Notes: generated by a model from the letters alone, not told the origin. A stretch of DNA of 64,000 nt from Dehalococcoidia bacterium (GCA_034428795.1 DAOUHF010000035.1:131-64130); one strand, 5' to 3'. Numbered from the stretch's first letter, positions 16,956-33,838 are shown. A program made the numbers and translations.

Positions 16956-17084
16956 GGAAGTCACCCCCGTCCGATATAGGGTATCGTCGTCGCCATTGGA
17001 ATCACCCCCGTCCGATATAGGGCGTCTTCGTCGCCATGGAAATCACCCCCGTCCGATATAGGGCATCTTCGTCGCCATGATGGT
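16948..17084. repeat. 41-bp tandem repeat (3 copies plus a partial) spanning the SDR 3' end and the NHL gene start
   Basis: gtcgcc anchors at 16948, 16989, 17030 and 17071, an exact 41-bp period. On the minus strand each copy reads ATGGCGACGA..CCCTATATCGGACGGGGGTGA. Confidence 0.9.
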
Positions 17085-18296: not shown

Positions 18297-19322
18297 ATGG
18301 ATTTTTACAAGGCTGAATACATCTGGATAGACGGGACGGAGCCGGTGTCCAAGCTCCGGTCCAAGGGCAATGTTATCCCCAATGGGCATGAACCTCCGAT
18401 ATGGGGTTTCGACGGCTCAAGCACGAACCAGGCCGTCGGGACTTATTCCGACTGTGTATTGAGACCGGTTTACAGTTGCGCGGACCCGATTCGCGGAGAT
18501 GACAACAGGCTGGTGATGTGTGAGGTTTTGCTGCCTGACATGACGCCTCACCCCTCCAACACCAGGGCGGCGTGTGCCGCCGCGGCGGAAAAATACGCCG
18601 ATTTCGACACTTGGTTCGGTATTGAGCAGGAATACACTTTCTTCGACGGGACCAAGCCGTTGGGATGGCCTTCCAACGGCTTTCCCGCGCCGCAGGGCGG
18701 GTACTACTGCGGAGTGGGATCGGACGAGGTCTTTGGCCGTCCCGTGGTAGAAGCCCACCTGGACGCCTGTCTCCGGGCAGGGCTGATGATTGCCGGCATC
18801 AACGGGGAAGTAATGCCGGCCCAGTGGGAGTTCCAGATCGGCCCGGTGGGCACTCCTGAAGTAGCCGACCAACTATGGATCGCCCGGTGGCTCCTGTACC
18901 GCATTGGAGAGGATATCCATATCGGGGAGGACGGCAGAGGAGTCAGCGCAACGCTCGACCCCAAACCAGTCCAGGGTGACTGGAACGGCGCCGGCGCCCA
19001 CTGTAACTTCTCGACCATGCAGATGCGCGCCAGCTACGAGCCCTGCGTGGCCGCCGCCGTGGCCCTCGGGACCAACCACGACGAGCACATTGCCAACTAT
19101 GGCCATCGAATCGAAGAACGCTTGACCGGTCTCCACGAGACCTGCTCCTACAGGGAATTCAGGTATGGAGTGTCGGACAGGGGGGCGTCCGTTCGAATCC
19201 CCTGGCAGGTCCATCGGGACGGCAAAGGGTATGTTGAGGACAGGCGGCCCAACGCCAATTGCGACCCGTACAAGGTGACCCGGCTGATCCTGAACACCGT
19301 ATGCGGGGCAGCTTCGTCCTAG
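18297..19322 (+). CDS. glnII: Glutamine synthetase type II (eukaryote-like GSII)
   Basis: 341 aa. N-terminus FYKAEYIWIDGTEP..KLRSK and the motifs GIEQEYTFF, NGEVMPAQWEFQIGP and NGAGAHCNFS are typical of GSII. Confidence 0.9.
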   Translation: MDFYKAEYIWIDGTEPVSKLRSKGNVIPNGHEPPIWGFDGSSTNQAVGTYSDCVLRPVYSCADPIRGDDNRLVMCEVLLPDMTPHPSNTRAACAAAAEKYADFDTWFGIEQEYTFFDGTKPLGWPSNGFPAPQGGYYCGVGSDEVFGRPVVEAHLDACLRAGLMIAGINGEVMPAQWEFQIGPVGTPEVADQLWIARWLLYRIGEDIHIGEDGRGVSATLDPKPVQGDWNGAGAHCNFSTMQMRASYEPCVAAAVALGTNHDEHIANYGHRIEERLTGLHETCSYREFRYGVSDRGASVRIPWQVHRDGKGYVEDRRPNANCDPYKVTRLILNTVCGAASS

Positions 19323-19633: not shown

Positions 19634-19918
19634 CTAGCCGGGGAGGATGCCTTCTCCGACGAAGAGGACCTGGGCTTCTTCCAGGGTCAGGTCGGCTGCG
19701 GGCAGAATCAGGTCTGATTCCACCAGTTCGTCTACCGGCACCGGCGTGCCGTGCTCCCGGATCAAGGCCAGCATCCGGCCCAGCAGTTCGCTGAAGCCGG
19801 CGCGGTCACCGGCTTCCACCGCCTCCACCAATTCGTTGTCGACGTCGTTGAGCGGGTCGATGTAGGCGCCGGGCAGATTGAACTGCCCCTCGGTTGCGAT
19901 TCGGACGATCATGACCAA
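19634..19918 (-). CDS. PspA-associated protein PspAA
   Basis: 94 aa. IVRIATEGQFNLP...LNDVDNELVEAVEAGD...FSELL...GTPVPVDELVESDLILP..DLTLEEA..L...EGILPG matches the PspAA pattern I recall. It lies directly downstream of pspA. Confidence 0.7.
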   Translation of the reverse strand: MVMIVRIATEGQFNLPGAYIDPLNDVDNELVEAVEAGDRAGFSELLGRMLALIREHGTPVPVDELVESDLILPAADLTLEEAQVLFVGEGILPG

Positions 19919-19941
19919 CTCCCTGGATGCTAATGGGTGCG

Positions 19942-20661
19942 CTACTGGCCGTTTTTCGAGGACGCGCCGGACTTGAGCGCGGCCAGTTCGCTCTCCACGT
20001 TCTGCTCCGACGTGAGCTTATCCAGCTCCCGGCTGATGTCGTCCTTGGTGCTCCCGGTGAAATCGTCCAGCACGCCGATGGCGGCCAGTTCGTCGATGGC
20101 GCCGGCGCGGGCGCGCATCTGGTCGGTCTTGTTCTCCGCCCGCTCCACCGCCAGGCTGATGTCCCCCATCTCTTCCGAGACGCCCGACAGGGCCGCGCCG
20201 ATGCGCACCTGGGCTTGGGCGGCAGTGTACTGCGCCTTGATGACCTCTTTCTTGGTCTTGAACGCTTCCACCTTGGCCTGGAGCCGCCGCTCCGCGACGG
20301 TCAGCTTCTCCTGCTCCAACTCCATACCCTCGATCTGGTCGTCCAAGCCCTGAAGCTCGATCGTGGATGCCTGCTTGCGCTGCAGGGCCAGCCGGGCAAG
20401 GTCTTCCCGTTCCGCCTCCATGGCCTGACGCGCCTGCGAGTCCAGCTTGGCGATGTTTTCCCGGACCACGGTCGCCTGCTGTTGAATACGCCGCTTGGCG
20501 GTGACCATCTCGACGACGCCGCGCTTGACGTTGCGCAGCATCTCCAGCTGCTTCTCGTAGGAATAATCCAGGGTCTCCCGGGGGTCCTCGGCCTGGTCCA
20601 GGATGCGGTTCATCTTGGACTTAACGATGGTGGACATACGCGATAGCATTCCCATTTTCAA
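19942..20661 (-). CDS. pspA: PspA/IM30-family membrane-stress protein
   Basis: 239 aa, coiled-coil. The N-terminus ...RMSTIVKSKMNRILDQAEDPRETLDYSYEKQLEMLRNVKRGV is typical of PspA/IM30/Vipp1. Confidence 0.9.
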   Translation of the reverse strand: MKMGMLSRMSTIVKSKMNRILDQAEDPRETLDYSYEKQLEMLRNVKRGVVEMVTAKRRIQQQATVVRENIAKLDSQARQAMEAEREDLARLALQRKQASTIELQGLDDQIEGMELEQEKLTVAERRLQAKVEAFKTKKEVIKAQYTAAQAQVRIGAALSGVSEEMGDISLAVERAENKTDQMRARAGAIDELAAIGVLDDFTGSTKDDISRELDKLTSEQNVESELAALKSGASSKNGQ

Positions 20662-20840
20662 CCTCCTCTGTTTCTGCTATTGATGAGGCTCACCAAGCCG
20701 ATTATGATTACGACGATGCCGATTACGGCGATGATCCAGCCGAGTATGTTAAGCAGGCTCGCGAAAAAGTCGGACTGAACGAGGAGTCCAACCACCAGCA
20801 AAATAATCCCAACGACTATCCAGCCACCCTTTAGGCCCAT
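20658..20840 (-). CDS. Small two-TM membrane protein, function unknown
   Basis: 60 aa with two hydrophobic helices. Its stop overlaps the pspA start by 4 bp, so it is the first gene of the psp operon. Confidence 0.55.
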   Translation of the reverse strand: MGLKGGWIVVGIILLVVGLLVQSDFFASLLNILGWIIAVIGIVVIIIGLVSLINSRNRGG

Positions 20841-20914
20841 CCTCGAATTCTCCCTTGTCAGTCTGCAAATCGACCAGCGTCAAGTTTACCACGGCCCGGC
20901 AATTCAGACCCGTC

Positions 20915-20934
20915 ATTCCCGCGAAAACGGGAAT
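20915..20934. repeat. REP-type hairpin in the divergent psp / DUF4178 control region
   Basis: attcccg-cgaaaa-cgggaat: 7-bp stem, 6-nt loop. Confidence 0.6.
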
Positions 20935-20982
20935 CCAGGAAGGATAGCCCGCTTCACTGATTGGCTGTACAATTCTGAGCGT

Positions 20983-21606
20983 ATGCTGCGTTCGATTTTT
21001 GGCAGAAAAAAGCGGAAGCGGGACTCATCCGCCCCTCCGTCACGCGAGGATAGCATCAGGGACGCCCGGGTCGGCGACGTAGTGTCGATCGCCGGGTTCC
21101 GCCTGGAGTACGAAGATGTCTATTTTTACGTGGAGAGAATCCACCGGTACTCCAGCCACGGCGAAACGTGGCATGAGATGGTGTGTACCGACGGCCAGCA
21201 CCAGGTTTGGGTCGATTGGGTGGACGGCCACGATCTGGTCGTCACCGCCACCGACAACCCGGACCCGTCGGGCTTGGCCAGCGTGGGTCTGACCGAAGAG
21301 ACGTTGGTCGAGCTGGACGAGGAGAACTCCATCGATAACCACATCGAGGTCGAAGGGGAAGTCTACCGCTACCGGAACAGCTCCGAAACGCTCTTCTACC
21401 AGGACGGCCGCGGGCCGGGCCAGGGCTTCTATTCCTGGGACTTCATCCGAGAGCAGGGGGACCGGGTGATGTCGGTGGCCAAGTGGGAAGGCAGGCCCTT
21501 CGAAGTAGCCTTCAGCGAGGTCATTCCGCCGGAGAACATCACCCTTTACCCCGGAGACCGTGGTTTAGAAAACCCCAGCCGCCCCAGCGAGCAGGAATAC
21601 CGATGA
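20983..21606 (+). CDS. DUF4178-like protein
   Basis: 207 aa. The segment GDVVSIAGFRLEYEDVYFYVE..H.Y....ETWHEM.C.DGQHQVWVDWVDG fits the DUF4178 pattern as I recall it. Its stop overlaps the next start (ATGA). Confidence 0.6.
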   Translation: MLRSIFGRKKRKRDSSAPPSREDSIRDARVGDVVSIAGFRLEYEDVYFYVERIHRYSSHGETWHEMVCTDGQHQVWVDWVDGHDLVVTATDNPDPSGLASVGLTEETLVELDEENSIDNHIEVEGEVYRYRNSSETLFYQDGRGPGQGFYSWDFIREQGDRVMSVAKWEGRPFEVAFSEVIPPENITLYPGDRGLENPSRPSEQEYR

Positions 21607-22505
21607 TTGACTCCTTCGTAGACACGTTGCAGGCATTCCCCCGCGGGCTGGTGTTCGTCGCCGTCGGGCTGGCGGTGCTTGTGCTCGGCAAGCTGGCCAG
21701 AGACGTAACGACACGCTACAGCATCGATCAGGAAGTCACCAAGAAGCAGAACCTGGCGGTGGCCCTGCGATTGAGCGGCTACTTCGCGGGGCTGGTGCTG
21801 GTGCTTCTGGGAGCGCTGTACCAACCGTTACTGCTGCCGGGCGAAGGCGGGCTAGGCTTCGACCGGGACTACTGGCTGGAGGTGCTCCGGGTCTTCCTGT
21901 ACGCCCTGGCCGGCATCGTGGCGCTGAACCTGGTGCGGCCCCTGATGGACCGGGCGATCCTGTACAAGTTCCGTGTCGACGACGAAATAGTCGAGGGGCA
22001 AAACGTGGGGACCGCCGCCGCCGAGTTCGGGCTGTACATCGCGACCGGCCTGCTGATTGCCGGCGCCGTAGCCGGCGAAGGGGCGGGTTCGGAGCTGACG
22101 TCGGCCTTGGTGACGTTGGCGTTCCTCGGCATGGGGCTGGTGTTCCTGGTGGCGTACGCGGTCTTCTACCAGTTCACCACACCCTACGACATCCACTCGG
22201 AAATCGAAGGCAACAACAACGCGGTCGGCATCGCCTTTGGCGGCAACCTGATTGCCATCGGCCTGGTGATGTTCAAGGCGGTGTTCGGCGACTTCGTCGG
22301 CTGGGGAGAGAGCATCGCCGCGTTTCTGACCTTGGGAGTAATCGGGTTTGCCCTGCTCTACGTGCTCCGGGTGCTCATCGACCGGTTGCTGCTGCCCACC
22401 GTCCGGGTTTCCAGCGCTTTGGCCGAGGGCCGGAACACCGGCGTCGCCTTTGTAGAGGGCTCCGTGGTAATTGCTTCCGCCCTGATACTGTTCATGGCGA
22501 TTTAG
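21603..22505 (+). CDS. Membrane protein with two DUF350 repeats
   Basis: Start at ATG 21603 (MIDSFVDTLQ...). Two copies of the DUF350-like motif: DDEIVEGQNVGTAAAEFGLYIATGLLIAGAV and HSEIEGNNNAVGIAFGGNLIAIGLVMFKAV. Confidence 0.7.
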   Translation: MIDSFVDTLQAFPRGLVFVAVGLAVLVLGKLARDVTTRYSIDQEVTKKQNLAVALRLSGYFAGLVLVLLGALYQPLLLPGEGGLGFDRDYWLEVLRVFLYALAGIVALNLVRPLMDRAILYKFRVDDEIVEGQNVGTAAAEFGLYIATGLLIAGAVAGEGAGSELTSALVTLAFLGMGLVFLVAYAVFYQFTTPYDIHSEIEGNNNAVGIAFGGNLIAIGLVMFKAVFGDFVGWGESIAAFLTLGVIGFALLYVLRVLIDRLLLPTVRVSSALAEGRNTGVAFVEGSVVIASALILFMAI

Positions 22506-23485
22506 GATTGGGGCGGGTTGCTCCAGACTTGCCGTAGCACCCTTCTCTCGGCCGCCAACTGCCGGGACTGATCGTTCTTCTCTTCCAGGTAGCTGTACCC
22601 GCTCTCGACGATCCTGGCGATAAGTTCGTCATCGAGGTCGAACCTGTTGACCGCCGGCTCCAGCAGCCGGTCGAAGAAATCGTCATCCTCGATCAGGCCG
22701 GTCCATTCGCCCGAGAAGGCGTCCAGGCTGCCGTCGTAGAGGCGCAGCAGGAACACCGTCCTCACGGGGTCCAGCCCCTCGTACTCGTAGACTTGGGGCC
22801 GCAGGTCCACCCCGCGGCCCCGGCCGAAGCAGACGTCCTCGGCCTCGTCGTCGAAGTCGGCGTCCTTGAAGTGGTCGTAGGCGTCGATGTAGTCTTCGGT
22901 TTCCCGCAGCAGCGTGCCGATAAGTTCCCGGCCCCCTTCGGTGATCGTGAACGCGCCGGTCTCCTCCCACGCCTCTTCTGGGAACTCGACCAGGCCCTTG
23001 CGTTGCAGTCCAGTGGCCCCGGGAGCCGTCGCCGTGATTCCGCACTGGAATTTGTCGAGGAAATAGAGGACGGTCAACTCCCTGAGCCAGGCCAACAACC
23101 CACCTTTGCTATGCCAGAACCCTTGGCGCACGGCGTATTCCAGGGCGCTGTACTGTTGTTCGATCCGCAGGTTGGGACAGACCGGTCCCGCCAGATCCAA
23201 TGCCGTGCCGCCATCGGTAGACACGGCCAGAGCGCAGAGGCCCTTTCGCCACTGGGCGACGGCGTCGAGAATCACGTCGTAGATGTCCTGCAGGTCCGGG
23301 TTGGTCCCCGCGTCCAGCATGGACTCCACGTCGCATTGCTGCTGCGGGTCTGCGGGGAACACCAGGTCAAGGAGGCGTCCTACGGTCTCATCGGCATAGT
23401 CCGGGGGCAGCCCGACAAGGAGACAGTCGGCCGGGTCCATTCCGGCGAGGGACACCCTGAGCTCGAAAGGCGCTGGCGGGCGCAT
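22502..23485 (-). CDS. Acidic cytoplasmic protein, function unknown (central winged-helix-like segment)
   Basis: 327 aa. LQRKGLVEFPEEAWEETGAFTITEGGRELIGTLL resembles a MarR/PadR-type wing. It is the last gene of the minus-strand array: 1-bp overlap with the upstream gene and 4-bp convergent overlap with the DUF350 gene. Confidence 0.55.
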   Translation of the reverse strand: MRPPAPFELRVSLAGMDPADCLLVGLPPDYADETVGRLLDLVFPADPQQQCDVESMLDAGTNPDLQDIYDVILDAVAQWRKGLCALAVSTDGGTALDLAGPVCPNLRIEQQYSALEYAVRQGFWHSKGGLLAWLRELTVLYFLDKFQCGITATAPGATGLQRKGLVEFPEEAWEETGAFTITEGGRELIGTLLRETEDYIDAYDHFKDADFDDEAEDVCFGRGRGVDLRPQVYEYEGLDPVRTVFLLRLYDGSLDAFSGEWTGLIEDDDFFDRLLEPAVNRFDLDDELIARIVESGYSYLEEKNDQSRQLAAERRVLRQVWSNPPQS

Positions 23486-24285
23486 CAGAAGCGGCGGCGG
23501 TCCCGGACGGACATTGCCCCGCCGCCGCCATAGCCACCGGAGCTGCGCGAAGAGCGGAAGGCCCCGGAACGGCCGCGGCTCACGGAACTGCTGGACTTGA
23601 ACGCCCCGCTGGTCCTCTGGGTCTGCTGGTAGGTCGTGCGGTTGGAGCTTACGTTGCCTTTCGATTGCTGGTAGCGGGAACCGGCGAAGGACGACTGCTT
23701 GCTGCTGTATGAGTTGTTGCGTTGCACCTGGCCGTTGTAATTGGAGCTTTGCCGGTAGGTGGTGCGCTGGTTGCGCATCCCGGGGCCTCTTCCCACCGGC
23801 GTGTTGTAGTAATAACCGCGCGGCGATATAGCCGAGATGAGCATGTAAGTGAACAGGAAGTCCCCGGCGCCGAAGTGGCTGTTGTAGTAGCCGTTGCCGT
23901 GGTAGCCCCGCATGTCGTATTCATCTTTGTCGTCTTTTACGATGGAGAAGAGCTGGTCGTCGGTCATGTCGTCGATCTCGTAGTTGCCGTTCAGATCTTC
24001 CCATCCTTCGAGGGTCAACCCGCCGCCGTCCTGGCTGGCCCGTACGAGCACCAGTCCGTCGCCTTCGTATATCTCGTTGACGCGGTCCTCGAAGTCAGTC
24101 GCGCTCTTTGAGTCCTTGAACGCCTGCTGAACGTCGTCCAGGTTTATCCTGCCTGCCGCTCCGTCGGTGGCGGCCCAGTCCTCGTAGGACGGTCCCGTTC
24201 CGCAGGCGGCGATCAGGGGCGCCGCGGCGACTATGCCGCCAAGGGAGATGGCCGTGCCCAGCTTGAACCTTCTCAACTCGTTCAC
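23485..24285 (-). CDS. Lipoprotein with a Ser/Arg/Gln/Asn/Gly-rich low-complexity C-terminal tail
   Basis: 266 aa. Signal peptide plus lipobox (LIAAC-GT), an acidic globular part, then a tail of about 100 aa ending SRSSGGYGGGGA. Its start overlaps the SecA-like stop by 4 bp. Confidence 0.7.
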   Translation of the reverse strand: MNELRRFKLGTAISLGGIVAAAPLIAACGTGPSYEDWAATDGAAGRINLDDVQQAFKDSKSATDFEDRVNEIYEGDGLVLVRASQDGGGLTLEGWEDLNGNYEIDDMTDDQLFSIVKDDKDEYDMRGYHGNGYYNSHFGAGDFLFTYMLISAISPRGYYYNTPVGRGPGMRNQRTTYRQSSNYNGQVQRNNSYSSKQSSFAGSRYQQSKGNVSSNRTTYQQTQRTSGAFKSSSSVSRGRSGAFRSSRSSGGYGGGGAMSVRDRRRF

Positions 24286-27044
24286 TCCTTCGCCGCCGCC
24301 ATCAGCGCGCGGGCATCCTCATGCACTCGGACCGGGGCGCTGACACGGGGATGAAAACGGTCTACGGGGAAAGTCAGCAACTGCGACAGGTACTCCGTCT
24401 CCACCCGCTCCAGGAACTCATCCCATGCCCGGAAGCTCTCCCGGACGTAGGCTGCCACGGCGGACTTGTGGCTCTTGTAGGAGAGCGTCTGGTTCAAGAT
24501 GGAGCCCTGAAGGTCGCTGAGGTGGCCCTTCCATTGCTCGTCGCAGGTATTCAAGTAGAGGAGAACGGCTAGGTGATTGAAATTGGAGGACCCGACTTCC
24601 CTCTCCAACTCGTCCAGCCGGTCCAGGAACAGCCGGCCCAACTGCGCCGGAAGCAGCGTCAGGTCGCAGCCCCAAAGGGCCGAGCAATCGACCTGATAGT
24701 CCAGCCGCAGTTCGTCGGCAAACCGGACGAACCTGGCGGGGTAATGTTCCGGGGTCACTTCCGCGAAATAATCGGCGCTGAGGCGGCCCGCCAGGCTCCG
24801 CGCCAACTCGAGGCTCCGTTCCAACTCGAGGCCCGGTCCCAACTCGAGGCCCCGTCCCTTGAACGCTGGCGAACCCATTGCCTCGCGCCGGTGGCGGTAA
24901 AAGAGGTCGGTCTGCCGGTCGATCACTGCGGTATAGTCGCTCAACAGACTGCGTTGCTCCTCGGCTTCTCTCTCAAAGACCCTCTGCACCGACCGGACGT
25001 GGGCATCGACCGCCGGTCCAGCGAAGTACGTTCGCCCGGCTGAGTCGGTATTGCGGCACTGGACTAGCTTCAGAATGCCGTCGGCGTAGAGGTTGAGGAG
25101 GCGGTCCTCCAGGCTCAACAGCCCCTGGGCGACGCCGAAATTACCCTGCCGGCCGCTCCGGCCGCTCAGTTGGAGGTCGATGCGCGGAGAGTAGTTGGTC
25201 TCCGTGCCGATAACCCGCAGTCCCGAGGGGAAGTCCGGCCTGTCCCGCTCCGGCAGCAGGGCCCACTGCCCGGCTATCCGGTCGTCCAGGCCGGGTTCCA
25301 GCAGTATATCGGTGCCCCGGCCGGCCATGTTGGTCGCCACGGTTACCGCGCCGAACGCGCCGGCCTCCCGGACGGTTCGAGCCTCTTCATCGGAGTGGAC
25401 CGCGTTCAGCAGGTTGTGGGAAATGCCGCGCTCCGTCAGGAGTCCGCTCAAGGCCTGCGAGTCCTCGACGCTCAGGGTTCCCACCAAGACCGGCTGGCCA
25501 ATGCGGTGGGCCGCGGCCACCTCGTCCACGATGGCCAGGGCCTTGTCCCGCTTGTTGAGATACACCCGGCAGCCCAGGTCGGCCCGTTTCAGGGGGCGGG
25601 CCGGGAGAAGCTCCACGACCTTGAGCCCGTAACGCTGCCTGAACTCGTCGGCGGAGGAGGCGGCCGTCCCGGTCATGCCGGATATCCACCGGTACCGCGT
25701 GATGAATCCTTCGACCGAAATCTGCCCCAGGGTTTCCGTCTCGGGGCGGGGTGTAATACCTTCCGCGGCTTCCACCGCCGACTGCAGCCCATGCTGGTAA
25801 ACGCAGTCCGCCTTGGGCCTGCCGGTGGCCCGGTCGATTAGCACTATGCGCCCCTCGGTGACCAGGTAGTCCACGTCGCGGTGCAGGAGGAGGCAGGCCC
25901 GCAGCATCTGGTGTACCTGGTTGCCCAGCTCATACTGCCGGGCCAGCCGCCGTCGCACCTCCCGCGCACGCCTTCTGCGTTCGCCGGCGGCGAGATGCCC
26001 GTGGGTCTCCAAGGCCTCCAGTTGCTCTTCGAGCGGACGCCCGTCGTAGAAAGGGCCCAACTGCCGCACCAATATTTCCCGGCCCTCGTCGGTCAGCGTG
26101 ACATAACGCTTGTCGGGCGCAATTACGTAAAGCAGGCCGGAAGCCAGGCCGGCGCGGTCCAGTTCGGCCACCAGGCTGGCCTGCTTGAGCGCCCCCGGCT
26201 GTTCGGCCAAGAGCCGCTTCAATTCCGGGTTGTCCGGTTCAGCCAGCAACAGCCGGGCCATGAGCCGGGTCCTCTCGCCGGCGCTTCCGGCCCACCGGGC
26301 CAGTTGACCGGCGATGCCTTGGGCAACCTCGCGCTGCCGGTCGATGAGACGGGAGACGGCCTTCCGGACCTTGACTACCGGGGCCCGGCCCCCGACGCGA
26401 CCGCCGGAGATAATCATGGGAGTGAAGGCTTCGTCAATGAGGGCGTGGTCCACCTCGTCAATGATCACCGCTTCCAGCTTTCCCTGCACCAACTCGTCGC
26501 CGACGGTCTTGAGGTTGTCCCGGAGAAAATCGAACCCGAACTCCCGCATCGCGCCGTAGACGACGTCCTTCCCGTAGCTCTGCCGCCGCTCGTCGTCCTC
26601 CATGTAGCCCAGCACCGGGCTGACGCCGATGCCCAGGGAGCGGTAGACCGGCCCAAGCAGTTCGGCGTCCCTGGAAGCCAGATAATCGTTGGCGGTCACG
26701 ACGTGGACGGCCCTTCCCAGCAACGCGTGGGCCACCGCCGGGAAGGCCGCGGCGACGGTCTTGCCCTCCCCGGCGGCGAGTTGGGCGATGCTTCCATCGA
26801 AGAGATGCGCCCCGGCAAGCAACTGCTCGTCCGTAGGCCGGATGCCGAGCTGCCTGGTTACCGCTTCGGCTGTGATGCCGAAGGCTTGGGCCAGGAGGTC
26901 TTCGAGGAGGTCTTCGGTGTGCGACTGGCGCGCCTCGTACTTGAGGCGCATCAAGTCCGCTCTCAGGCCGCCGTTCTCGTGACCGGAGAAGTCAAGGCGG
27001 CGCGCCTTCGCCAGTATGCTTTGGGGCCGGTCTTTTGAAGTCAT
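24282..27044 (-). CDS. Divergent SecA-family ATPase (SecA2-like paralogue)
   Basis: 920 aa. Walker A AAGEGKT, VTANDYLASRDAE, Walker B IIDEVDHALIDEAFTPMIISG, GLQSAVEAAEG, SGMTGTA, VLVGT, ATNMAGRGTDI and RIDLQLSGRSGRQG all align with canonical SecA motifs but carry substitutions at normally invariant positions. There is no C-terminal zinc tail. Confidence 0.85.
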   Translation of the reverse strand: MTSKDRPQSILAKARRLDFSGHENGGLRADLMRLKYEARQSHTEDLLEDLLAQAFGITAEAVTRQLGIRPTDEQLLAGAHLFDGSIAQLAAGEGKTVAAAFPAVAHALLGRAVHVVTANDYLASRDAELLGPVYRSLGIGVSPVLGYMEDDERRQSYGKDVVYGAMREFGFDFLRDNLKTVGDELVQGKLEAVIIDEVDHALIDEAFTPMIISGGRVGGRAPVVKVRKAVSRLIDRQREVAQGIAGQLARWAGSAGERTRLMARLLLAEPDNPELKRLLAEQPGALKQASLVAELDRAGLASGLLYVIAPDKRYVTLTDEGREILVRQLGPFYDGRPLEEQLEALETHGHLAAGERRRRAREVRRRLARQYELGNQVHQMLRACLLLHRDVDYLVTEGRIVLIDRATGRPKADCVYQHGLQSAVEAAEGITPRPETETLGQISVEGFITRYRWISGMTGTAASSADEFRQRYGLKVVELLPARPLKRADLGCRVYLNKRDKALAIVDEVAAAHRIGQPVLVGTLSVEDSQALSGLLTERGISHNLLNAVHSDEEARTVREAGAFGAVTVATNMAGRGTDILLEPGLDDRIAGQWALLPERDRPDFPSGLRVIGTETNYSPRIDLQLSGRSGRQGNFGVAQGLLSLEDRLLNLYADGILKLVQCRNTDSAGRTYFAGPAVDAHVRSVQRVFEREAEEQRSLLSDYTAVIDRQTDLFYRHRREAMGSPAFKGRGLELGPGLELERSLELARSLAGRLSADYFAEVTPEHYPARFVRFADELRLDYQVDCSALWGCDLTLLPAQLGRLFLDRLDELEREVGSSNFNHLAVLLYLNTCDEQWKGHLSDLQGSILNQTLSYKSHKSAVAAYVRESFRAWDEFLERVETEYLSQLLTFPVDRFHPRVSAPVRVHEDARALMAAAKE

Positions 27045-27069
27045 GACGACGACAGCATCCGGAGGCTTC

Positions 27070-28164
27070 CTATCCGATCCTTTCTTGCCCGATCCTTTCC
27101 CGCAGGCCAGGCCAAGAATACCTGCTGGAGCTAATGTACACCAGAAGGTCGCCCGCGGTCAGGAATATGTCTCCAAACTTCAGGTACGCCTGCCGGTCGC
27201 GGATCATCCCAACGAGGTTGATATCCTGTTCAAGCAGCCTTGCGGCGACTTGAGTGTAGCCAAGGGGGCCGCCGCCGGCCTCAAAAGAGGGCGCGGACTC
27301 GACCTTCGTGCTGGCCAGCGTACCCTCTACCAGATTGCTGGTCATGGCCTGCGTGAGTAAGGTGACTCCGGGGTCCTGGGACTCCTGGATCAGAAGGTTG
27401 GTGGCCATGCGAAGGGTATACACCAGCGTGGTGTCGGGAGAGCCGGAGAAGAGACGCCGGTGATTCGGCGACATACATTCGGCGACGGTCCGGATACCGG
27501 GGTTGAGGCTGGCGATGACGGTGGCGGCGGCGGCAACCACGCTGTCGCTGTTGGGGTCGTCGTAGTTCGTGCTCAGGATAATAGCCTGGATGGCCTCGTC
27601 GACGCCGGCCCTGCGATAGGTCTCCTCGTCCAGGGGCGAACCGCGGACGAAGGACACGTTGGGATGGTCAAACGGCAGGGTGTTCACCGTGTCGGTAATA
27701 ATGACGAACTCGGTCCCGCGGTGCCCCCGGTCGGCCAGGAACTCGTCGACAACCTGGCGGACTCTGGTCTCGTTGGGGAAGTTTACGATCAGCAGGTGGC
27801 CCTTGGCATTCACGGTCGCCATTCCGGTCTGCTCCTTCATGCGCAGGTCCAGGACCCAGTCCACCAGGATCCCCGCCGTGGTGGTGAAGGCCACCAGCCC
27901 GACCAGGACGATGAACACTACCGTGCCGATGCGGGCGCCGGCGGCCGACGCCGACAGGTCGCCGTACCCGATCGTGCTGATGGATATTACGCTGTACCAC
28001 AGGCTGTCGCCGATGGTCAGGTCGGGCTGAACGCTCCGCTCGAAAACGAAGAAGGTCAGGGCGTTGCCGGCGATGCTTCCTCCCAGCACGACCAGTATAG
28101 CCAGAAGGCCCAGCTCCCGTCTGCGGCGCGCCCGGCGCATGATTCTTACTAGAGAAAGGTACAT
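27070..28164 (-). CDS. Two-TM K+ channel with cytoplasmic RCK/TrkA domains
   Basis: 364 aa. TIGYGD selectivity filter between two TM helices, followed by a TrkA-N-like domain (LLIVNFPNE...) and a TrkA-C-like domain. Confidence 0.85.
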   Translation of the reverse strand: MYLSLVRIMRRARRRRELGLLAILVVLGGSIAGNALTFFVFERSVQPDLTIGDSLWYSVISISTIGYGDLSASAAGARIGTVVFIVLVGLVAFTTTAGILVDWVLDLRMKEQTGMATVNAKGHLLIVNFPNETRVRQVVDEFLADRGHRGTEFVIITDTVNTLPFDHPNVSFVRGSPLDEETYRRAGVDEAIQAIILSTNYDDPNSDSVVAAAATVIASLNPGIRTVAECMSPNHRRLFSGSPDTTLVYTLRMATNLLIQESQDPGVTLLTQAMTSNLVEGTLASTKVESAPSFEAGGGPLGYTQVAARLLEQDINLVGMIRDRQAYLKFGDIFLTAGDLLVYISSSRYSWPGLRERIGQERIG

Positions 28165-28206
28165 ACGGCGGCGTTCTCTATCGGTTGGCTGAACGGAACG
28201 AGGCTG

Positions 28207-29595
28207 TCAACTCCCCAGCTTCATAATGACGAGCCCCGCTTCGTGGCCCGGGCCGTCGCACTCGTTGAGCCGGGCCAGCAGATGCTCTTCGGCCTCCAGG
28301 ATTCTCTGGCTGACCACCGGCTCGGCCTGTGAGAATTCGACGCCGAGCGGCGAGTCCAGGTCCCACCGCTCGGTGACGGAACATTCCAGACCAGCCCGGC
28401 GGCTCGCCGCCTCATACTCGCGGCGGACTCTGCCGAACTCCTGCTCGCTGCGGTAGGGAATGGGGATGACGTAATAATCGCTGGAAAGGTACAGTCCCAA
28501 CTCGTTGTCGAACACCTGCATCAGGTCGGTATAGGGCATCCAGCCCTCCAGGGCGAAAAAGAAGTTCTCCGGGATGTCCTGTGGCGCGCGGTGGTAGTAG
28601 AAGTCTTCCTCGGCCTCGATCATCTTGATCTTTACGGGCGTCTTGTCTTCGCAACCCAGGAGGCGCTCGGCCTCCGGGCCCCGTAGAAACAGGAAGGGAA
28701 TGTTGCCGTTGGTGGCGTCTACCAGCACCGGCTCCCCGCCGATATCATACAGCAGGGCGGTATGCTGCCAGAACCGGGTGTACCGCCGGGAGAAACGGAA
28801 GTCGAAGGTTACCAGAAGCTCTCGCAGCTTCTCCGCCGGCAGCGTTCCGGAGGCGTTGGGTCCGGCGACGAGGTACTCGGATTCGAGGCCGTAATGGTCG
28901 GTAAGGAACTTCAGCGCCTGCACCTTTTCCGAGCAGATCGCCCCGGCGCCCTCCATAATGTTGTCGATGGTCTCGTCCCCTGACTTGTAGACCAGCTTCC
29001 TGCCGACGAACCGGGAGTAGTTCTCGAATTGGGCGTTCCAGACCCTCTGGGCCAACGCCTCCAGCAGCTTGAGGCCCAACCCGGACGACGCGCCTTCGAG
29101 AATCCGCCCGGCTTCCGAGGGTCCGAAACGGTCCGTCAGCGTCTGATGCACAAAGGCGGAGTATTTCGCGTCGTCTCGCTGCCACTTGCGGGCGTGGAAG
29201 CCCGGCCAGTTCCGATGGTAGGCGCCGTTGGTGCGGTCGATGTTGATGTCAATGACAGGGACCGGCCGCCCCCCGATCAGCACCGGGTGACGGGCGGGAA
29301 TTCCGTCCAGTCCGATGTGCCGGTCCAGGTCTTTGAAAGTCATCTCCGGGACCAGGTCCAGGAGACGGCCGCTGTCGGAGCAGAGGTACAGCAGGTCCTG
29401 CAGGGCGTACAGGGCGCCGGCGGAGTCCGGGGTAATCCGGCCCTCCCGCAGCATCCGGTCTACGGGGGCGTGCTTGACATACCGGTCCAGCAAGTACCTC
29501 AAGGGCCGGGACCCCTCGCCGGCGTCGATCCGGAGGGCGCACTTTCTGGTGGAGACCAAGTCGGAGAACTGGAGTATCAAGTCACCGGACGGCAT
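28207..29595 (-). CDS. Uncharacterised protein with a putative transglutaminase/papain-like Cys-His-Asp core
   Basis: 462 aa. GAGAICSEKVQALKFLTDHYGLESEYLVAG (Cys221, codon 28935..28933) and about 57 aa later WQHTALLYDIGGEPVLVDATNG (His278, Asp293) follow the transglutaminase-like GxC...H...D pattern. The ORF is solid; the fold call is an inference. Confidence 0.45.
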   Translation of the reverse strand: MPSGDLILQFSDLVSTRKCALRIDAGEGSRPLRYLLDRYVKHAPVDRMLREGRITPDSAGALYALQDLLYLCSDSGRLLDLVPEMTFKDLDRHIGLDGIPARHPVLIGGRPVPVIDINIDRTNGAYHRNWPGFHARKWQRDDAKYSAFVHQTLTDRFGPSEAGRILEGASSGLGLKLLEALAQRVWNAQFENYSRFVGRKLVYKSGDETIDNIMEGAGAICSEKVQALKFLTDHYGLESEYLVAGPNASGTLPAEKLRELLVTFDFRFSRRYTRFWQHTALLYDIGGEPVLVDATNGNIPFLFLRGPEAERLLGCEDKTPVKIKMIEAEEDFYYHRAPQDIPENFFFALEGWMPYTDLMQVFDNELGLYLSSDYYVIPIPYRSEQEFGRVRREYEAASRRAGLECSVTERWDLDSPLGVEFSQAEPVVSQRILEAEEHLLARLNECDGPGHEAGLVIMKLGS

Positions 29596-30781
29596 GGGGC
29601 CCGGCCCCCCAGCGGGCGGCGAAGTGGTCGTAGGTGAACCGGCTCTTCAAGACCGGCGCGCCGGAAGGCGGCAGCGCGTAGACCGAAGGGAGTCCGATTC
29701 CGTTGAAGGAATGGGCCTTGGTCATGGTGTACGAACCGGCGTTGTTGAAGAACACCCTGTCCCCCACACCCAAGACGCGCTCGAACCGGTAGGAGCCGAA
29801 CAGGTCTCCGGCCAGGCAGGTGCTTCCCGCCAGCAGGTATTCGTGGGCTGCGTCGTCGTCGTGTCCGATCACGTCGGGCCGGAAGCCGTACTCGAGCACC
29901 TCGGGCATATGGTTCACCGTGGTGTCCAGCACTGCTATTTGCTTGCCGTCGCTGGGGAACACGTCCAGCACCGTGGACACGATGTATCCGGCGGAGCGCA
30001 CCAGGGCGGAGCCGGGTTCGAAGAACACGTCCAGCCGCGGCCCGGAGGCTCCGGCCTGTCGCCTGAGGAGGCTCACCGCCTCGATGAACGGCCTGTAGTC
30101 CGAGTCTTCGTCAAAAAGATACCCGCCGCCGAGGTTGATCCACCGGAGGCGCGCCAGCACCGGCGCGGCTTGAGCACAGACCAGCTTTACCGTTTCCAGC
30201 AGCTCCGTGAAATCGGTGGAGTCGCAGTTTGAATGGAACAGGACGCCCGTCAGCCCGTCGAACCGCTCCGGTTCCCGGTCGAACGCCGCAACCATGTCCA
30301 GCAGGGGGACGCCCAGCTTCGAGTGGGGCCGGCAGGGGTCGTAGCGTTCGTCGTCGGCAAAGGACATCTGAGGATTCACGCGCAGCCCGCAACTCGCCAT
30401 GCCTTTGATACGGTCCCGGTACCGGTCCCACTGGCCCAGTGAATTGAAGGAGACGAAGTCGCACAAGCCGCCGATCTCGTCGATTTCGCTTTCCTTGACG
30501 CCCGGCGTGGTAAGGTGGACCGCCCCACGGTGGCCGTTGGGCCGGTCTTTGAGGGAGGCCTGGGCCAAGCGCGCCTCAAAGAGCGAACTTACTGAGAACC
30601 CGTCAAGTTCCGGGGCCATCAGCTTGAGGGCGTCCAGGACCGAGAAGGACTTGATGGCAAACAGGAGCCGGCAATCTCCGTCCCGGCGCAGCTTCCGTCC
30701 GACTTGAAGCAGACGCCGGATAGCCGTCTCGTCGTAAACGAAGGCCGGCGTGTCGACGGCGTCAAGCCCGGCCGGATACAT
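29582..30781 (-). CDS. nspC: Carboxynorspermidine/carboxyspermidine decarboxylase-like PLP enzyme
   Basis: 399 aa. TPAFVYDE, LFAIKSF (PLP lysine), GFSVSSLFEARLA, VSFNSLGQW, GLRVNPQMSF and DPCRPHSKLG resemble NspC/CANSDC rather than LysA or SpeC. It overlaps both flanking genes. Confidence 0.75.
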   Translation of the reverse strand: MYPAGLDAVDTPAFVYDETAIRRLLQVGRKLRRDGDCRLLFAIKSFSVLDALKLMAPELDGFSVSSLFEARLAQASLKDRPNGHRGAVHLTTPGVKESEIDEIGGLCDFVSFNSLGQWDRYRDRIKGMASCGLRVNPQMSFADDERYDPCRPHSKLGVPLLDMVAAFDREPERFDGLTGVLFHSNCDSTDFTELLETVKLVCAQAAPVLARLRWINLGGGYLFDEDSDYRPFIEAVSLLRRQAGASGPRLDVFFEPGSALVRSAGYIVSTVLDVFPSDGKQIAVLDTTVNHMPEVLEYGFRPDVIGHDDDAAHEYLLAGSTCLAGDLFGSYRFERVLGVGDRVFFNNAGSYTMTKAHSFNGIGLPSVYALPPSGAPVLKSRFTYDHFAARWGAGPHAVR

Positions 30782-32225
30782 GCCCAGCCCTCTCGGCCGT
30801 CACTTGCCGGATGGGACGGCGGACGGCCCCGGGGTCGATACCCGCCCGCATCGCCGCCATGACGCCGGCTGCCTCCCAGTAATTGTCAACCAGATGGAAC
30901 TGACCGGCCCGCCACGGCAGTTGTGACAGGTCGTTCCTCATCAGGTTCTCGTTCTCCCGCACCGCGATGACCGGGATGCCCTGCTCCAGCGCCGCCGCGG
31001 TGGGCAGCCCCAGGCAGCCGTCGGGAATCACCAGGCAGGAAACGTCCTCCACGGACAGGACGTGGGGCGCGCCCATTTCGGCAGGCTCGGTGACTATCCT
31101 GGGACTTCGCTGCAGCCCCTTCAGCACCGACTGCAGGAAGGTGAGCGAGATGGCTTCGGCGGCCAGCCGGGGATCGACGACGCCCGTGTCAACCTCCATC
31201 GCGGCTTGGGACTCCAGCATTGGCGAGTGGGCCGAGGGCACGTCGTAGATGCTGGAGATGGTATGGGTCAGCATGGATTCGACTCCACCCCAAGGGTTGA
31301 CCATGCTGCCGTCGCTGCCGAAATAGTCGCCGTGGTAATGGAAGGGAACGGTGATGACCGAGGACATCGCCACCGCGTCGTATTCCCCCCGGTGTTGGTC
31401 CAGCACGTCCACGACGCGGCTCAGGCCCTCCACCTCCCCCGCCGCCCGCGCCGAGCCGGTGTACTGCGACCTCATGATCAGCGGCGGGTCCAGCTCTATC
31501 ACCTTGGGGCACGTCAGGCCGTAAGACGCACGGGCCGCGTTGACGGCGTTGACCGCCATCGCCGGAAAGAGCGGGTCGGGATGGGAGCTGATCAGCGCCA
31601 GAACCCGGTTGCTTCTGACCGGCTGCAGGCCCGCCGTGCCCATCAGCAGGCGCGAAATGACGCTTCCCTCGACGTAGAGGCCGTTTTCGGGCAGCTCGTT
31701 TATGTCGGAGGCGTTGACCACGTTCGGATGAGTGACCAGCCGGTCGCAGATGGAAGCCAGCAGGCGGGCGACCGGCGTCGCGTCCCCGGCGTGGCCTCCG
31801 ATGGCGGCCCCAATGCCGGTCGGGACCAGCAATACCGCGTTGAAGCTCCCGGTGTTCTCCGTCCGGCGTTGGCGGTACCGGAACATCAGCCCGCTGGGGA
31901 AACGCCGGCCATTTTCCAGACCCTCTTCCCGGACGGTGGTAACCTCGCAGCGGCAGGCGGCGCCGTCCGACTCGGTTACGACGAACCTGACCGGCGCGAG
32001 GCCCTCGGGCAGACACGCCATAGTCTGCCCGGCCCACCAATCGAGGACGGTGACGCCTGGGGGCGCGGCGGGAATGTCCAGCGTGATTTCCGACAAGAAC
32101 ACTGTTGGTTTCGTCTCCGGCGGAACTGCCAGTAGATTATAACCCCTGCCATCTACTCCCGTGATTCCAGTTTGCAATTGAGACTCCCAAGATCGCCGGC
32201 GTATCGGAAACGCCGGACTTGACAT
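30762..32225 (-). CDS. DUF3326-like protein with an extra N-terminal domain of about 125 aa
   Basis: 487 aa. LLVPTGIGAAIGGHAGDATPVARLLASICDRLVTHPNVVNASD matches the DUF3326 motif as I recall it (cyanobacteria and plastids). Its 3' end overlaps the nspC-like start by 20 bp. The 5' end is uncertain: the first ~30 codons are lower in GC and an internal GTG is possible. Confidence 0.5.
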   Translation of the reverse strand: MSSPAFPIRRRSWESQLQTGITGVDGRGYNLLAVPPETKPTVFLSEITLDIPAAPPGVTVLDWWAGQTMACLPEGLAPVRFVVTESDGAACRCEVTTVREEGLENGRRFPSGLMFRYRQRRTENTGSFNAVLLVPTGIGAAIGGHAGDATPVARLLASICDRLVTHPNVVNASDINELPENGLYVEGSVISRLLMGTAGLQPVRSNRVLALISSHPDPLFPAMAVNAVNAARASYGLTCPKVIELDPPLIMRSQYTGSARAAGEVEGLSRVVDVLDQHRGEYDAVAMSSVITVPFHYHGDYFGSDGSMVNPWGGVESMLTHTISSIYDVPSAHSPMLESQAAMEVDTGVVDPRLAAEAISLTFLQSVLKGLQRSPRIVTEPAEMGAPHVLSVEDVSCLVIPDGCLGLPTAAALEQGIPVIAVRENENLMRNDLSQLPWRAGQFHLVDNYWEAAGVMAAMRAGIDPGAVRRPIRQVTAERAGHVSGRA

Positions 32226-32358: not shown

Positions 32359-33561
32359 ATGGTCAATCCCGGGAAAGCTCTAAACGTAGCCGTCATTGGC
32401 GCCGGCATCCTGGGCGCCGCCATCGCCTGGTGTCTGGCGCAGCGCGGCGTCCGCGTCGCCCTCATCGACAAGGGCGAGCCTGGGCACGGCGCGTCAAGCC
32501 ACAGCTTTGCCTGGATCAATGCCGGGGCGAAAGAGCCCATCGGGTATCACAACCTGAACCGCCGCTCCCTGGAGATGTGGCCCCGTTTCGCCGCCGGCAT
32601 CGGCGATCACGGAGACCCGGACAGCGTCGGCCTCCGTTGGGGCGGCAAGGTTTCTTGGCAGTCCGACCCGGTGGCCGCCGAGGGGTTGGCGGCCCGGGTG
32701 CGGCAACTCCAGTCCTGGGGCTACCCCACCCGTCTGATCGACGCCGACGAGCTGAAGCGTCTGGAACCGGCGCTGGACGTTGGCCCGGTGGCCGCCGCCG
32801 AGTACAGTCCCAACGAAGGACAGGTGGAGCCGCAAATGGTGGTCGATGCGTGCCTCCGTCGCCTTTGGGAAATGGGTTGTGAGATTCATGCCGGCACGGA
32901 AGTCAATGGATTCGAGCGGTATGATGACGGCCGGATCCACGGCCTGGCAACCTCCTCGGGCTCCAGGGGTGTGGATGCAGTGGTCATTGCCGCGGGCGCC
33001 GCAACCACTCGCCTGGCGGCCTTGGCCGGCGTCAACGTGCCCCAAGCGGAAAGTCCCGGCGTGGTGATACGAACAAACCCACTGCCGCCCTTGCTCCACA
33101 ACGTGCCGGTGGTGTACGCGCCGGCGTTGGGCAGTGGCCGCCGGGAGATTCATTTGCGACAGTGCGCCGACGGCCGCCTGATGATCGGCGAAGGCGACCA
33201 GGAAAGTCTGGCCGAAGACGACACCCAGGCCCACGCCGACGACCTGCTGGCCAGGGCATGCCGCTATCTGCCGGGACTCATCGGTGCGCAGGCCGTTCCG
33301 GTGCCGGTGGGCTGGCGTCCTATGCCCCTGGACGGCTATCCGGTGATGGGGTTTGCGTCCGAGGCGCCCAACCTGTACCTGGCCCTCACCCACAGCGGCG
33401 TTACTCTGGCTCCGGCGTTGAGTCAACTGGCCGCCCAGGAAATCTGCGACGGGACGCCGGCAGACGCGGTGCTGGGGCCCTATCGCCCGCAACGGTTCGC
33501 CGGTCTGACAGAGGAGGAAGCGGCGGCGGCCGCGCACCCCCGCGCCGCCAAAATACGCTGA
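32359..33561 (+). CDS. FAD-dependent oxidoreductase (DAO / glycine-D-amino-acid oxidase family)
   Basis: 400 aa; the N-terminus VAVIGAGILGAAIAWCLAQRGVRVALIDKG is a dinucleotide-binding fold. Confidence 0.85.
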   Translation: MVNPGKALNVAVIGAGILGAAIAWCLAQRGVRVALIDKGEPGHGASSHSFAWINAGAKEPIGYHNLNRRSLEMWPRFAAGIGDHGDPDSVGLRWGGKVSWQSDPVAAEGLAARVRQLQSWGYPTRLIDADELKRLEPALDVGPVAAAEYSPNEGQVEPQMVVDACLRRLWEMGCEIHAGTEVNGFERYDDGRIHGLATSSGSRGVDAVVIAAGAATTRLAALAGVNVPQAESPGVVIRTNPLPPLLHNVPVVYAPALGSGRREIHLRQCADGRLMIGEGDQESLAEDDTQAHADDLLARACRYLPGLIGAQAVPVPVGWRPMPLDGYPVMGFASEAPNLYLALTHSGVTLAPALSQLAAQEICDGTPADAVLGPYRPQRFAGLTEEEAAAAAHPRAAKIR

Positions 33562-33663: not shown

Positions 33664-33838
33664 TTCCATAGCTCGAATGGGTAGGACGCGCCGTCTCGGC
33701 TGGTCAGGATGGGCTTGGAACTCATCTGCGGCATCCACTTTGAAGAAGTGGTTGTCTGCTTCCGGCGGTGTTAGGATGCTAACGTCTCCGGCTTGACCAA
33801 CGGGCGGGGACGCACCGATAAAATTGGAGGATCAGCCC

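Follow-up and report, generated by a model that had tools for sequence, protein, structure and literature searches.

A conserved multi-operon membrane locus of Dehalococcoidia that combines PspA, DUF350 and DUF4178 proteins with a candidate polyamine pathway and a putative SecA paralogue

Introduction

Several kinds of bacterial gene neighbourhood in which PspA is accompanied by DUF350 membrane proteins and polyamine enzymes have been described by Ravi et al. (2024, mSystems, PMC11237479). In their second group, of which Shewanella AAN56744-47 is an example, PspA is found with a DUF350 protein of eight transmembrane (TM) segments, a DUF4178 protein, a lipoprotein that carries the Ctha_1186 domain, and a membrane-bound spermidine synthase. 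Their third group consists of operons with an ATP-grasp enzyme, a K+ channel, DUF350, DUF1190 and DUF2491. The same authors described the pairing of PspA with PspAA (PspA-associated domain A) and a PspA-free actinobacterial variant with DUF4247/DUF2617, and proposed a link between polyamines and membrane dynamics. Following Pederick et al. (2023), the E. coli ATP-grasp protein YjfC, encoded in yjfIJKLMC, currently carries the annotation peptide-spermidine ligase. Here we report a locus related to these systems at positions 19634 to 32225 of a 64,000-nucleotide stretch of DNA from a Dehalococcoidia bacterium (GCA_034428795.1, DAOUHF010000035.1:131-64130), referred to below as the window. It contains twelve open reading frames (ORFs). 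Seven lie in a row on the minus strand and are numbered g1 to g7 in order of transcription; they code for a DUF3326 protein (g1), a decarboxylase resembling NspC (g2), a putative Cys-His-Asp enzyme (g3), a K+ channel (g4), a divergent SecA-like protein (g5), a predicted lipoprotein (g6) and an acidic protein (g7). The remaining five code for a double-DUF350 membrane protein, a DUF4178 protein, a small protein with two TM segments, PspA and PspAA. An earlier note, made from the sequence alone, had regarded the whole as a candidate for a composite envelope-stress module of undescribed composition.

The locus has in common with the second group of Ravi et al. that PspA, an 8-TM DUF350 protein, a DUF4178 protein, a surface lipoprotein and a polyamine-biosynthetic enzyme occur in one neighbourhood. 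It differs in that PspA is paired with PspAA rather than with a CesT/Tir (DUF2170) protein (0/12 proteins match DUF2170), that DUF3326 and NspC-like proteins are found instead of the spermidine synthase, that the lipoprotein has no detectable family, and that g3, g7, the SecA paralogue and the K+ channel are also present. A spermidine/spermine synthase fused to a 7-TM domain was found neither in the cluster nor among the conserved genes of 80 related loci. The likeness to the E. coli yjfIJKLMC type consists of PspA, DUF350, a low-complexity lipoprotein and a candidate polyamine-amide enzyme, and the RCK-type K+ channel has its counterpart in the K+ channel with a ligand-sensing domain that is seen in yjf relatives. 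However, the cluster has no match to DUF2170 (YjfI), DUF2491 (YjfK), DUF1190 (YjfM) or ATP-grasp (YjfC), and its candidate for amide formation is not an ATP-grasp protein but a Cys-His-Asp enzyme, to which relatives add an AMP-binding ligase.

The cluster is a lineage-specific elaboration of the published PspA/DUF350/DUF4178/lipoprotein/polyamine-enzyme/K+-channel theme, and the composition itself is undescribed in the literature searched. The recurrence of most of this theme had been recognised in the earlier note, and the work of Ravi et al. bears this out, but the K+ channel, which had been counted there as an addition, already belongs to the published theme and pairs with g3 relatives in other lineages. 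Neither 'SecA' nor 'transglutaminase' is mentioned in the main text of Ravi et al., and the literature searched yielded no account of a SecA paralogue, or of these genes in combination, for these lineages, in keeping with the earlier note, in which no described system of this make-up was known.

Conservation of the neighbourhood

Relatives of g3 were sought in one genome per species, and matches were obtained in 158 species. The best 80 loci, each made up of g3 with 10 kb on either side, were analysed by mapping the window proteins onto them. All 80 assemblies are Dehalococcoidia or Chloroflexota, and the closest g3 is 94% identical to the window protein. The SecA-like gene was present in 74/80 loci, g6 and g7 in 69 each, the double-DUF350 gene in 65, the DUF4178 gene in 60, the DUF3326 gene in 56 and the NspC-like gene in 53; PspA was found in 43, PspAA in 41, the K+ channel in 35 and the small 2-TM gene (by tblastn) in nine. 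Three flanking genes of the window were found in 0, 2 and 4 of the 80. The six-gene core of g3, SecA-like, g6, g7, DUF350 and DUF4178 is complete in 60/80 loci, and the exact 11-gene set of the window, which includes the K+ channel as well as the Psp genes, in only eight. When all ORFs of the 80 loci were clustered independently of the window, the same gene set was conserved and nothing besides. The linkage of these genes is far beyond chance. Flanking synteny is gone by about 80% g3 identity, and the block itself persists down to 50%. In several loci the pair of DUF3326 and NspC-like genes is inverted or shifted beyond PspAA, yet it is still in the neighbourhood.

The pattern of conservation was reproduced in an independent set of metagenome contigs, many of which carry a marine or Tara label. 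Complete chromosomes of carriers include OZ240214.1, OZ241919.1 and OY761541.1, and there are cultivated strains of SAR202. Independent gene calls with precomputed Pfam assignments showed g3, SecA, g6 and g7, then DUF350 and DUF4178 on the opposite strand, and the order continued with a 58-aa gene, PspA and PspAA, followed by DUF3326 and NspC on the opposite strand. The three putative transcription units recognised in the window therefore form one conserved neighbourhood in the 80 loci, in the metagenome set and in the independent calls. Taken as a whole, the locus is a single multi-operon membrane system of Dehalococcoidia, conserved and selectively maintained, whose genes stay together in more than 150 species (g3 relatives occur in 158). 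The earlier note had named a lack of synteny in related genomes as its refuting condition; synteny is present, and the linkage is not peculiar to one strain. The linkage proposed in that note is thus upheld, but PspA (43/80) is not its anchor and the full composition is rare; PspA and PspAA are a frequent accessory of the cluster.

The putative Cys-His-Asp enzyme

The product of g3 (28207..29595, minus strand) is a cytoplasmic protein of 462 aa that belongs to no Pfam family, and searches of Pfam (up to E 10) and NCBIfam gave no match. At least 825 homologues share roughly 60% identity with it, all of them unannotated; only 167 relatives were returned when 1.8 billion representative proteins were searched exhaustively with a profile. 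Three residues, Cys221, His278 and Asp293, are invariant in close relatives and down to about 25% identity. In the AlphaFold2 model, which has a mean predicted local distance difference test (pLDDT) score of 73, the cysteine is placed at the N-terminus of a helix, and the histidine and aspartate, 15 residues apart, on adjacent strands. A cysteine at a helix N-terminus with His and Asp on adjacent strands is the arrangement of transglutaminases and arylamine N-acetyltransferases (NATs). Among the Foldseek matches of the model, which are weak but consistent, arylamine N-acetyl/acyltransferases predominate, followed by Rad4, vasohibin, FXIIIa and, weakly, the ansamycin amide synthase GdmF; a putative protease (3kd4) is also matched. 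One distant relative matches Acetyltransf_2 (PF00797, E-value 0.0097) and another Transglut_core (PF01841, 5e-4), both below cut-off.

In the order and placement of its catalytic residues g3 resembles the NAT/transglutaminase superfamily, where its best structural matches also lie, but it is about 200 residues longer, has additional N- and C-terminal domains and gives no significant match to PF00797 or PF01841. The invariant residues, the model and the matches support g3 as a probable Cys-His-Asp enzyme of the NAT/transglutaminase fold class. This agrees with the possible transglutaminase of the earlier note, and such an enzyme would fit the role of a non-homologous stand-in for the ATP-grasp protein YjfC. 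Two g3 relatives, P0250 (L081, 1597-3912) and P0251, have an N-terminal arginase-family (agmatinase-like) domain fused to the g3 domain, a fusion that ties g3 to guanidino-amine and polyamine chemistry. Nothing of note was obtained when PDB sequences were searched with g1 or with the profiles of g3 and g7. An N-terminal domain common to g3 and g7 was considered and rejected, the profile-profile comparison by hhalign giving a probability of 0.2%.

The polyamine enzyme pair and the K+ channel

The two genes at the head of the array, g1 (30762..32225, minus strand) and g2 (29582..30781, minus strand), overlap by 20 bp, and g2 overlaps g3 by 14 bp. The 487-aa product of g1 has its DUF3326 domain (Pfam PF11805, 1.4e-91) at residues 129-468, preceded by an N-terminal extension of 128 aa. 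That of g2 (399 aa) is a pyridoxal-phosphate enzyme like carboxynorspermidine decarboxylase, with the Pfam domains Orn_DAP_Arg_deC and Orn_Arg_deC_N. Its best NCBIfam match is nspC (TIGR01047; 4.1e-81), over the full length and with 272 bits, below the equivalog cut-off of 409, and the protein is best described as NspC-like, with a substrate that may differ from that of carboxynorspermidine decarboxylase. The earlier assignment of g2 as an NspC-like polyamine enzyme is sustained, and its pairing with DUF3326 can now be added. The two genes stay side by side when the pair inverts or relocates, and their pairing recurs in the distant locus L169.

A DUF3326 protein next to a CANSDC-like decarboxylase is likewise found in the pavABC cluster for pavettamine, where PavB (DUF3326) and PavA (CANSDC-like) are both needed for the triamine N-(5-aminopentyl)pentane-1,5-diamine (bioRxiv 10.64898/2026.06.12.731819). 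Unlike in pavABC, the decarboxylase has no Rieske domain, there is no JmjC/cupin protein corresponding to PavC, and the pair lies within a cluster of membrane proteins. By analogy we infer that g1 would be the reductive-condensation partner of the g2 decarboxylase in polyamine synthesis.

The K+ channel gene g4 (27070..28164, minus strand) follows g3 after a gap of 42 bp, and is itself separated by 25 bp from g5. It codes for a protein of 364 aa with two TM segments, a TIGYGD selectivity filter and a cytoplasmic RCK region (Pfam Ion_trans_2, Slo-like_RCK and TrkA_N). K+ channels also adjoin or lie near g3 relatives in L083, L087, L167 and L169. These junctions, together with the coordinates of all twelve ORFs and the other overlaps of the seven-gene array, were recomputed and match those of the earlier note; its domain calls for DUF3326, DUF350, DUF4178, PspAA, SecA and the RCK channel were likewise confirmed by profile searches.

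The putative SecA paralogue, the lipoprotein and the acidic protein

The divergent SecA-like protein is encoded by g5 (24282..27044, minus strand; 920 aa), which overlaps g6 by 4 bp; g6 in turn overlaps g7 by 1 bp. The order SecA, g6, g7, with overlaps of 4 and 1 bp, is constant across loci. All the motor regions of SecA are present in g5 (NBD1, PPXD, NBD2 and scaffold/wing; Pfam SecA_DEAD, SecA_PP_bind, P-loop_SecA and SecA_SW), and the C-terminal zinc-finger motif is absent. Its scores against models of housekeeping SecA are about 500 bits for TIGR00963 (cut-off 800) and 506-507 for NF009538 (cut-off 814), and against the SecA2 models TIGR03714, TIGR04221, TIGR04397 and NF012136 they are 336-441 bits, where the cut-offs are 725-1100. 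Four g5 homologues likewise fall below the SecA cut-offs (394-573 bits) and below those of all four SecA2 models. Across 73 sequences of the family, Walker A, Walker B and motifs V and VI are invariant, and from these motifs the paralogue is predicted to keep an intact ATPase. The tip of the two-helix finger aligns poorly across the family and allows no inference on engagement of SecY. In many of the orthologues (L011, L022, L038, L048, L061 and others), about 60-180 residues are inserted between the first helices of NBD1 and Walker A, by which the GEGKT motif comes to lie at residue 175-275; the window copy lacks this insertion and has the motif at residue 92.

The accessory SecA2 proteins (mycobacterial, streptococcal SecA2/SecY2, and those of Bacillus, Listeria and Clostridioides) resemble g5 in having the full motor architecture and no C-terminal zinc finger, and the g5 gene likewise adjoins a candidate dedicated substrate, g6. 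On the other hand, g5 is below all four SecA2 cut-offs, has no SecY2 or Asp partner, and is linked to the enzyme g3 and to polyamine genes. The label 'SecA2-like' in the earlier note thus holds as an analogy but not as family membership.

The lipoprotein gene g6 (23485..24285, minus strand) codes for 266 aa, and its product is the only protein of the cluster with a signal peptide. The lipobox cysteine, Cys28, is followed by an acidic globular domain with an isoelectric point (pI) of 4.05 and then by a basic tail (pI 12.0) that is rich in Ser, Arg, Gln, Tyr and Gly and has a GGGG motif about ten residues from the end. The lipobox cysteine and the Ser/Arg/Gln/Gly-rich tail, which lacks acidic residues, are conserved in about 58 species. 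Conservation of the tail extends to individual positions, with Arg, Tyr and Gln residues fixed and the GGGG preceding a variable end. An EF-hand-like EDLNGN loop can be read from inspection of the sequence of the globular domain. No match was obtained for g6 in Pfam (up to E 10) or NCBIfam. Identity with DUF1190/YjfM was rejected, as only 1/26 orthologues gave a match (E = 0.065) and the hhalign comparison of the g6 profile with YjfM gave 0.5%. A search with the g6 domain from outside Chloroflexota returned only 19 short proteins, and the two of these that were inspected proved to be fragments, split by frameshifts, of ordinary SecA-g6 loci from long-read contigs of low coverage. Two tandem g6 paralogues (15199-16305 and 16425-17222) are present in L058, the first of which is 368 aa long and has a different, more acidic tail.

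The last gene of the array, g7 (22502..23485, minus strand), codes for an acidic cytoplasmic protein (327 aa, pI 4.2) without known family; neither Pfam (up to E 10) nor NCBIfam gave a match. It has 353 homologues. The AlphaFold2 model (pLDDT 91) weakly matched ubiquitin-like beta-grasp domains, and by this match the protein may consist of an N-terminal beta-grasp-like domain followed by a helical region. The acidic character given in the earlier note stands, and the winged-helix-turn-helix-like segment is only weakly suggested.

The DUF350/DUF4178 and Psp genes

The gene for the double-DUF350 membrane protein (21603..22505, plus strand; 300 aa) converges on g7, with a 4-bp overlap at 22502-22505. 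The protein matches PF03994 in two stretches (1.1e-50), and eight TM segments are predicted from its hydrophobic segments. Wherever the gene was found (65/80) it is convergent on g7, and it is also present in L167, L165 and L170. Immediately upstream is the DUF4178 gene (20983..21606, plus strand; 207 aa; PF13785, 5.8e-11). The two share an ATGA at 21603-21606, seen on inspection of the sequence, through which they are probably translationally coupled.

Divergent from the DUF4178 gene, in the related loci (43/80) as in the window, is pspA (19942..20661, minus strand), coding for a PspA/IM30 protein of 239 aa by the longest ORF (PF04012, 1.4e-22). This ORF starts with TTG, and within it a GGAGG, read as a Shine-Dalgarno sequence, lies six bases ahead of an ATG (20653-20661), so that the true start is probably the ATG at 20655. 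The small 2-TM protein (20658..20840, minus strand; 60 aa, with two hydrophobic segments) is encoded upstream of pspA, and with the ATG start the reported 4-bp overlap between the two genes becomes a 2-nt gap; their adjacency stands. This small protein shows a weak match to DUF6458 (1.4e-4, below cut-off), and an independently called gene of 58 aa is found at the same place in L170. The PspAA gene (19634..19918, minus strand; 94 aa) starts 23 bp past the end of pspA, and its product matches PF22743 over the full length (4.9e-33).

Variant loci and the older core

In six variant Dehalococcoidia loci (L046, L053, L054, L061, L068 and L069), extra genes are inserted between g3 and the SecA gene, and similar extra genes are found in L119, L121, L123, L130 and L156. 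Two of the products are an AMP-binding, PaaK-like enzyme (c31) and a shorter protein (c50) that has neither annotation nor Pfam match; some loci also code for an unknown protein (c12; 226-271 aa) and a tandem universal stress protein. In some of the variant loci, genes for PadR and DegV are found upstream.

More distant lineages carry subsets of the cluster. The K+ channel gene is directly beside g3 in L083 and L087, the protein of the latter being labelled Chitinivibrionales. The gene order in L085 (unknown taxon) is g7-like, g3, c50-like, SecA-like, AMP-binding and amidohydrolase (Amidohydro_2). In L167, a marine lineage whose protein cluster includes one Verrucomicrobiota-labelled member, it is double-DUF350, a TM-anchored g6 homologue, a g7 homologue, g3, c50-like, AMP-binding and K+ channel. 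In L169, a distant lineage of unknown taxon, NspC-like, DUF3326, g6 homologue, g7 homologue and g3 follow one another with a K+ channel nearby, and there is no DUF350 gene. The proteins beside g3 in L167 and L169 were matched to g7 by hhalign with probabilities of 96% and 93.6%. Among all the genes of the cluster, g6, g7 and g3 are the deepest co-conserved trio (L167, L169), and the oldest unit consists of the double-DUF350 gene, g6, g7 and g3 with an acid-activating or a polyamine pair and usually a K+ channel. The SecA-like gene was seen in Chloroflexota and in the L085 lineage, and DUF4178 and PspA/PspAA in Chloroflexota loci only. The SecA paralogue is a Chloroflexota-centred addition to the older core.

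Five loci (L018, L020, L029, L033 and L037) have g3 and an NspC-like gene (tblastn) without g6, g7, DUF350 or DUF4178 within 10 kb; in the first two of these, L018 and L020, the SecA-like gene still adjoins g3.

Flanking genes and other searches

A glutamine-synthetase-like ORF of 341 aa (18297-19322, plus strand) adjoins the PspAA gene. It has Gln-synt_N and only the first half of the catalytic domain, and may be truncated. Enzymes like glutamine synthetase include the gamma-glutamyl-polyamine synthetases. As a member of the system this ORF was rejected, since it occurs in 0/80 related loci, the 94%-identical ones included. On the other side, the cluster is flanked by a DAO-family FAD oxidoreductase (32359-33561, plus strand) and a class I/II aminotransferase (33824-35050, plus strand). 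These two genes show high-identity synteny in the two closest relatives only (L001 and L007), and are the edge of the conserved block. No riboswitch or other Rfam RNA was found between 17000 and 35000. Anti-phage defence was considered and rejected, the sole PADLOC match being a negligible match of a JetA fragment to the SecA-like protein.

Discussion

The mechanism that we favour, and to which we give a probability of roughly 0.45, is that polyamine synthesis and amide conjugation take place in the cytoplasm and are coupled to a membrane module and to the dedicated export of g6. The DUF3326 and NspC-like proteins would produce a triamine-type polyamine in two steps, a reductive condensation and then a decarboxylation, in line with the proposal for PavB/PavA. 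A thioester would be formed on Cys221 of g3, and its acyl or peptidyl group moved to an amine of the polyamine to give an amide conjugate, which would make g3 the non-homologous counterpart of the peptide-spermidine ligase YjfC. The activated acid may be supplied in relatives by the PaaK-like adenylate-forming pair, and in the window by a common acyl donor instead. The SecA paralogue would export the adjoining lipoprotein g6, which would be a poor substrate for general Sec because its tail is very basic (pI 12), with the acidic g7 as a possible cytoplasmic adaptor. The 8-TM DUF350 protein with DUF4178, the RCK K+ channel and PspA/PspAA would couple the balance of polycations and K+ to the integrity of the membrane. 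A function of the locus in envelope stress, as suggested in the earlier note, is an assignment by guilt by association.

Several observations weigh against this interpretation. On the side of the enzyme, the Foldseek matches of g3 are weak (E about 1e-2, target TM-score 0.35-0.39, probability up to 0.98), and its model is of low confidence near the active site, where residues 190-207 and 249-277 have pLDDT values under 50. The adenylate-forming pair carried by many relatives is missing from the window. As regards export, the versions of the cluster in L167 and L169 are without the SecA paralogue, and in L085 a SecA-like gene is present with no detectable g6, so the SecA-like protein may serve g3 or the adenylating enzyme instead of g6. 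A second SecA was not found in the window or in the related loci of about 20 kb, a range short of whole genomes. The membrane components are also loosely held: PspA is adjacent in only 43/80 loci, and the K+ channel occurs without Psp in 27, Psp without the channel in 33, and both in eight. Within the fetched range the channel and the Psp genes are mostly alternatives, which may be partly an effect of the 10-kb limit. Finally, a scan for promoters and terminators gave counts close to those of shuffled sequences, with nothing over background, and was not used.

The deep co-conservation of g6, g7 and g3 could also be explained if the lipoprotein itself were the acceptor. In that case g3 would attach a polyamine to the tail or C-terminus of g6, at a Gln side chain or at a carboxylate near the GGGG, with help from the adenylating enzymes in relatives, and the modified protein would next be exported by the dedicated SecA, in the way that adhesins are modified before their export by accessory Sec systems. 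The outcome would be an adjusted charge of cell surface and membrane, with DUF350/DUF4178, the K+ channel and PspA as membrane-side partners. The g6 tail is fixed by position (Gln, Tyr, Arg and the GGGG before the variable end), the SecA paralogue gene lies between g3 and g6, and YjfC ligates peptides to spermidine, all of which would be expected. The triad of g3 is of transglutaminase type, and one distant relative matches Transglut_core, yet the best structural matches are small-molecule N-acyltransferases and not protein transglutaminases, and the arginase-family fusion likewise suggests small-molecule chemistry. There are, in addition, lineages that have g6 and g3 but no SecA paralogue. 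We consider modification of g6 unlikely; it would amount to a new pathway of protein modification and export, the most novel of these explanations.

The cluster might instead produce a secreted or specialised metabolite derived from a polyamine, for instance a pavettamine-like acyl-polyamine, with the channel, DUF350 and PspA acting in export or self-protection. The pair of DUF3326 and CANSDC-like enzymes is the core of pavABC, the NAT-fold enzymes include ansamycin amide synthases (GdmF being the weak Foldseek match), and AMP-binding and amidohydrolase genes are present in variant loci. However, the class-wide inheritance of the cluster, its high conservation and the membrane-linked g6 and g7 are unlike the patchy occurrence of secondary-metabolite clusters. 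No polyketide synthase, nonribosomal peptide synthetase or tailoring oxygenase was found among the conserved genes of the 80 loci, and the window has no adenylating enzyme. This explanation appears less likely still.

If g3 were a hydrolase rather than a synthetic enzyme, it would be a cysteine peptidase or amidase of the papain/transglutaminase fold that processes g6 or hydrolyses polyamine conjugates. The Cys-His-Asp fold class includes many bacterial peptidases and would accommodate the logic of a glutathionylspermidine amidase, a match to the putative protease 3kd4 was obtained, and L085 carries an Amidohydro_2 gene. The structural matches of g3 are nevertheless mostly NATs, and acid-activating enzymes co-occur with it, suggesting synthesis; we regard hydrolysis as quite improbable, and place it below the metabolite explanation. 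Least likely of all is that independent units (PspA-PspAA, DUF4178-DUF350, housekeeping polyamine genes, a K+ channel, and SecA with its neighbours) are together by ancestry only, for which the common descent of all the Dehalococcoidia loci, the adjacency of PspA in 43/80, and the co-occurrence of channel and Psp, and of the full set, in only 8/80 could be cited, but the flanks are lost at about 80% g3 identity where the block is kept to 50%, the genes stay together through rearrangements, subsets recur in distant lineages (one with a Verrucomicrobiota-labelled relative), and the domain themes recur independently in Proteobacteria and Actinobacteria.

The theme of PspA, DUF350 and polyamine enzymes is widespread in bacteria, E. 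coli and M. tuberculosis included. What is new here are three unannotated conserved families (g3, g6 and g7) and a new family of putative SecA paralogues, along with further support for polyamine synthesis by a DUF3326 protein paired with a CANSDC-like enzyme. Since the enzymes are soluble and the favoured mechanism makes concrete predictions (a triamine product, acyl transfer at Cys221 and export of g6 that depends on g5), the link between polyamines, K+ and membrane integrity becomes directly testable. The Dehalococcoidia, here with many contigs from marine metagenomes among them, are an abundant lineage that is poorly understood.

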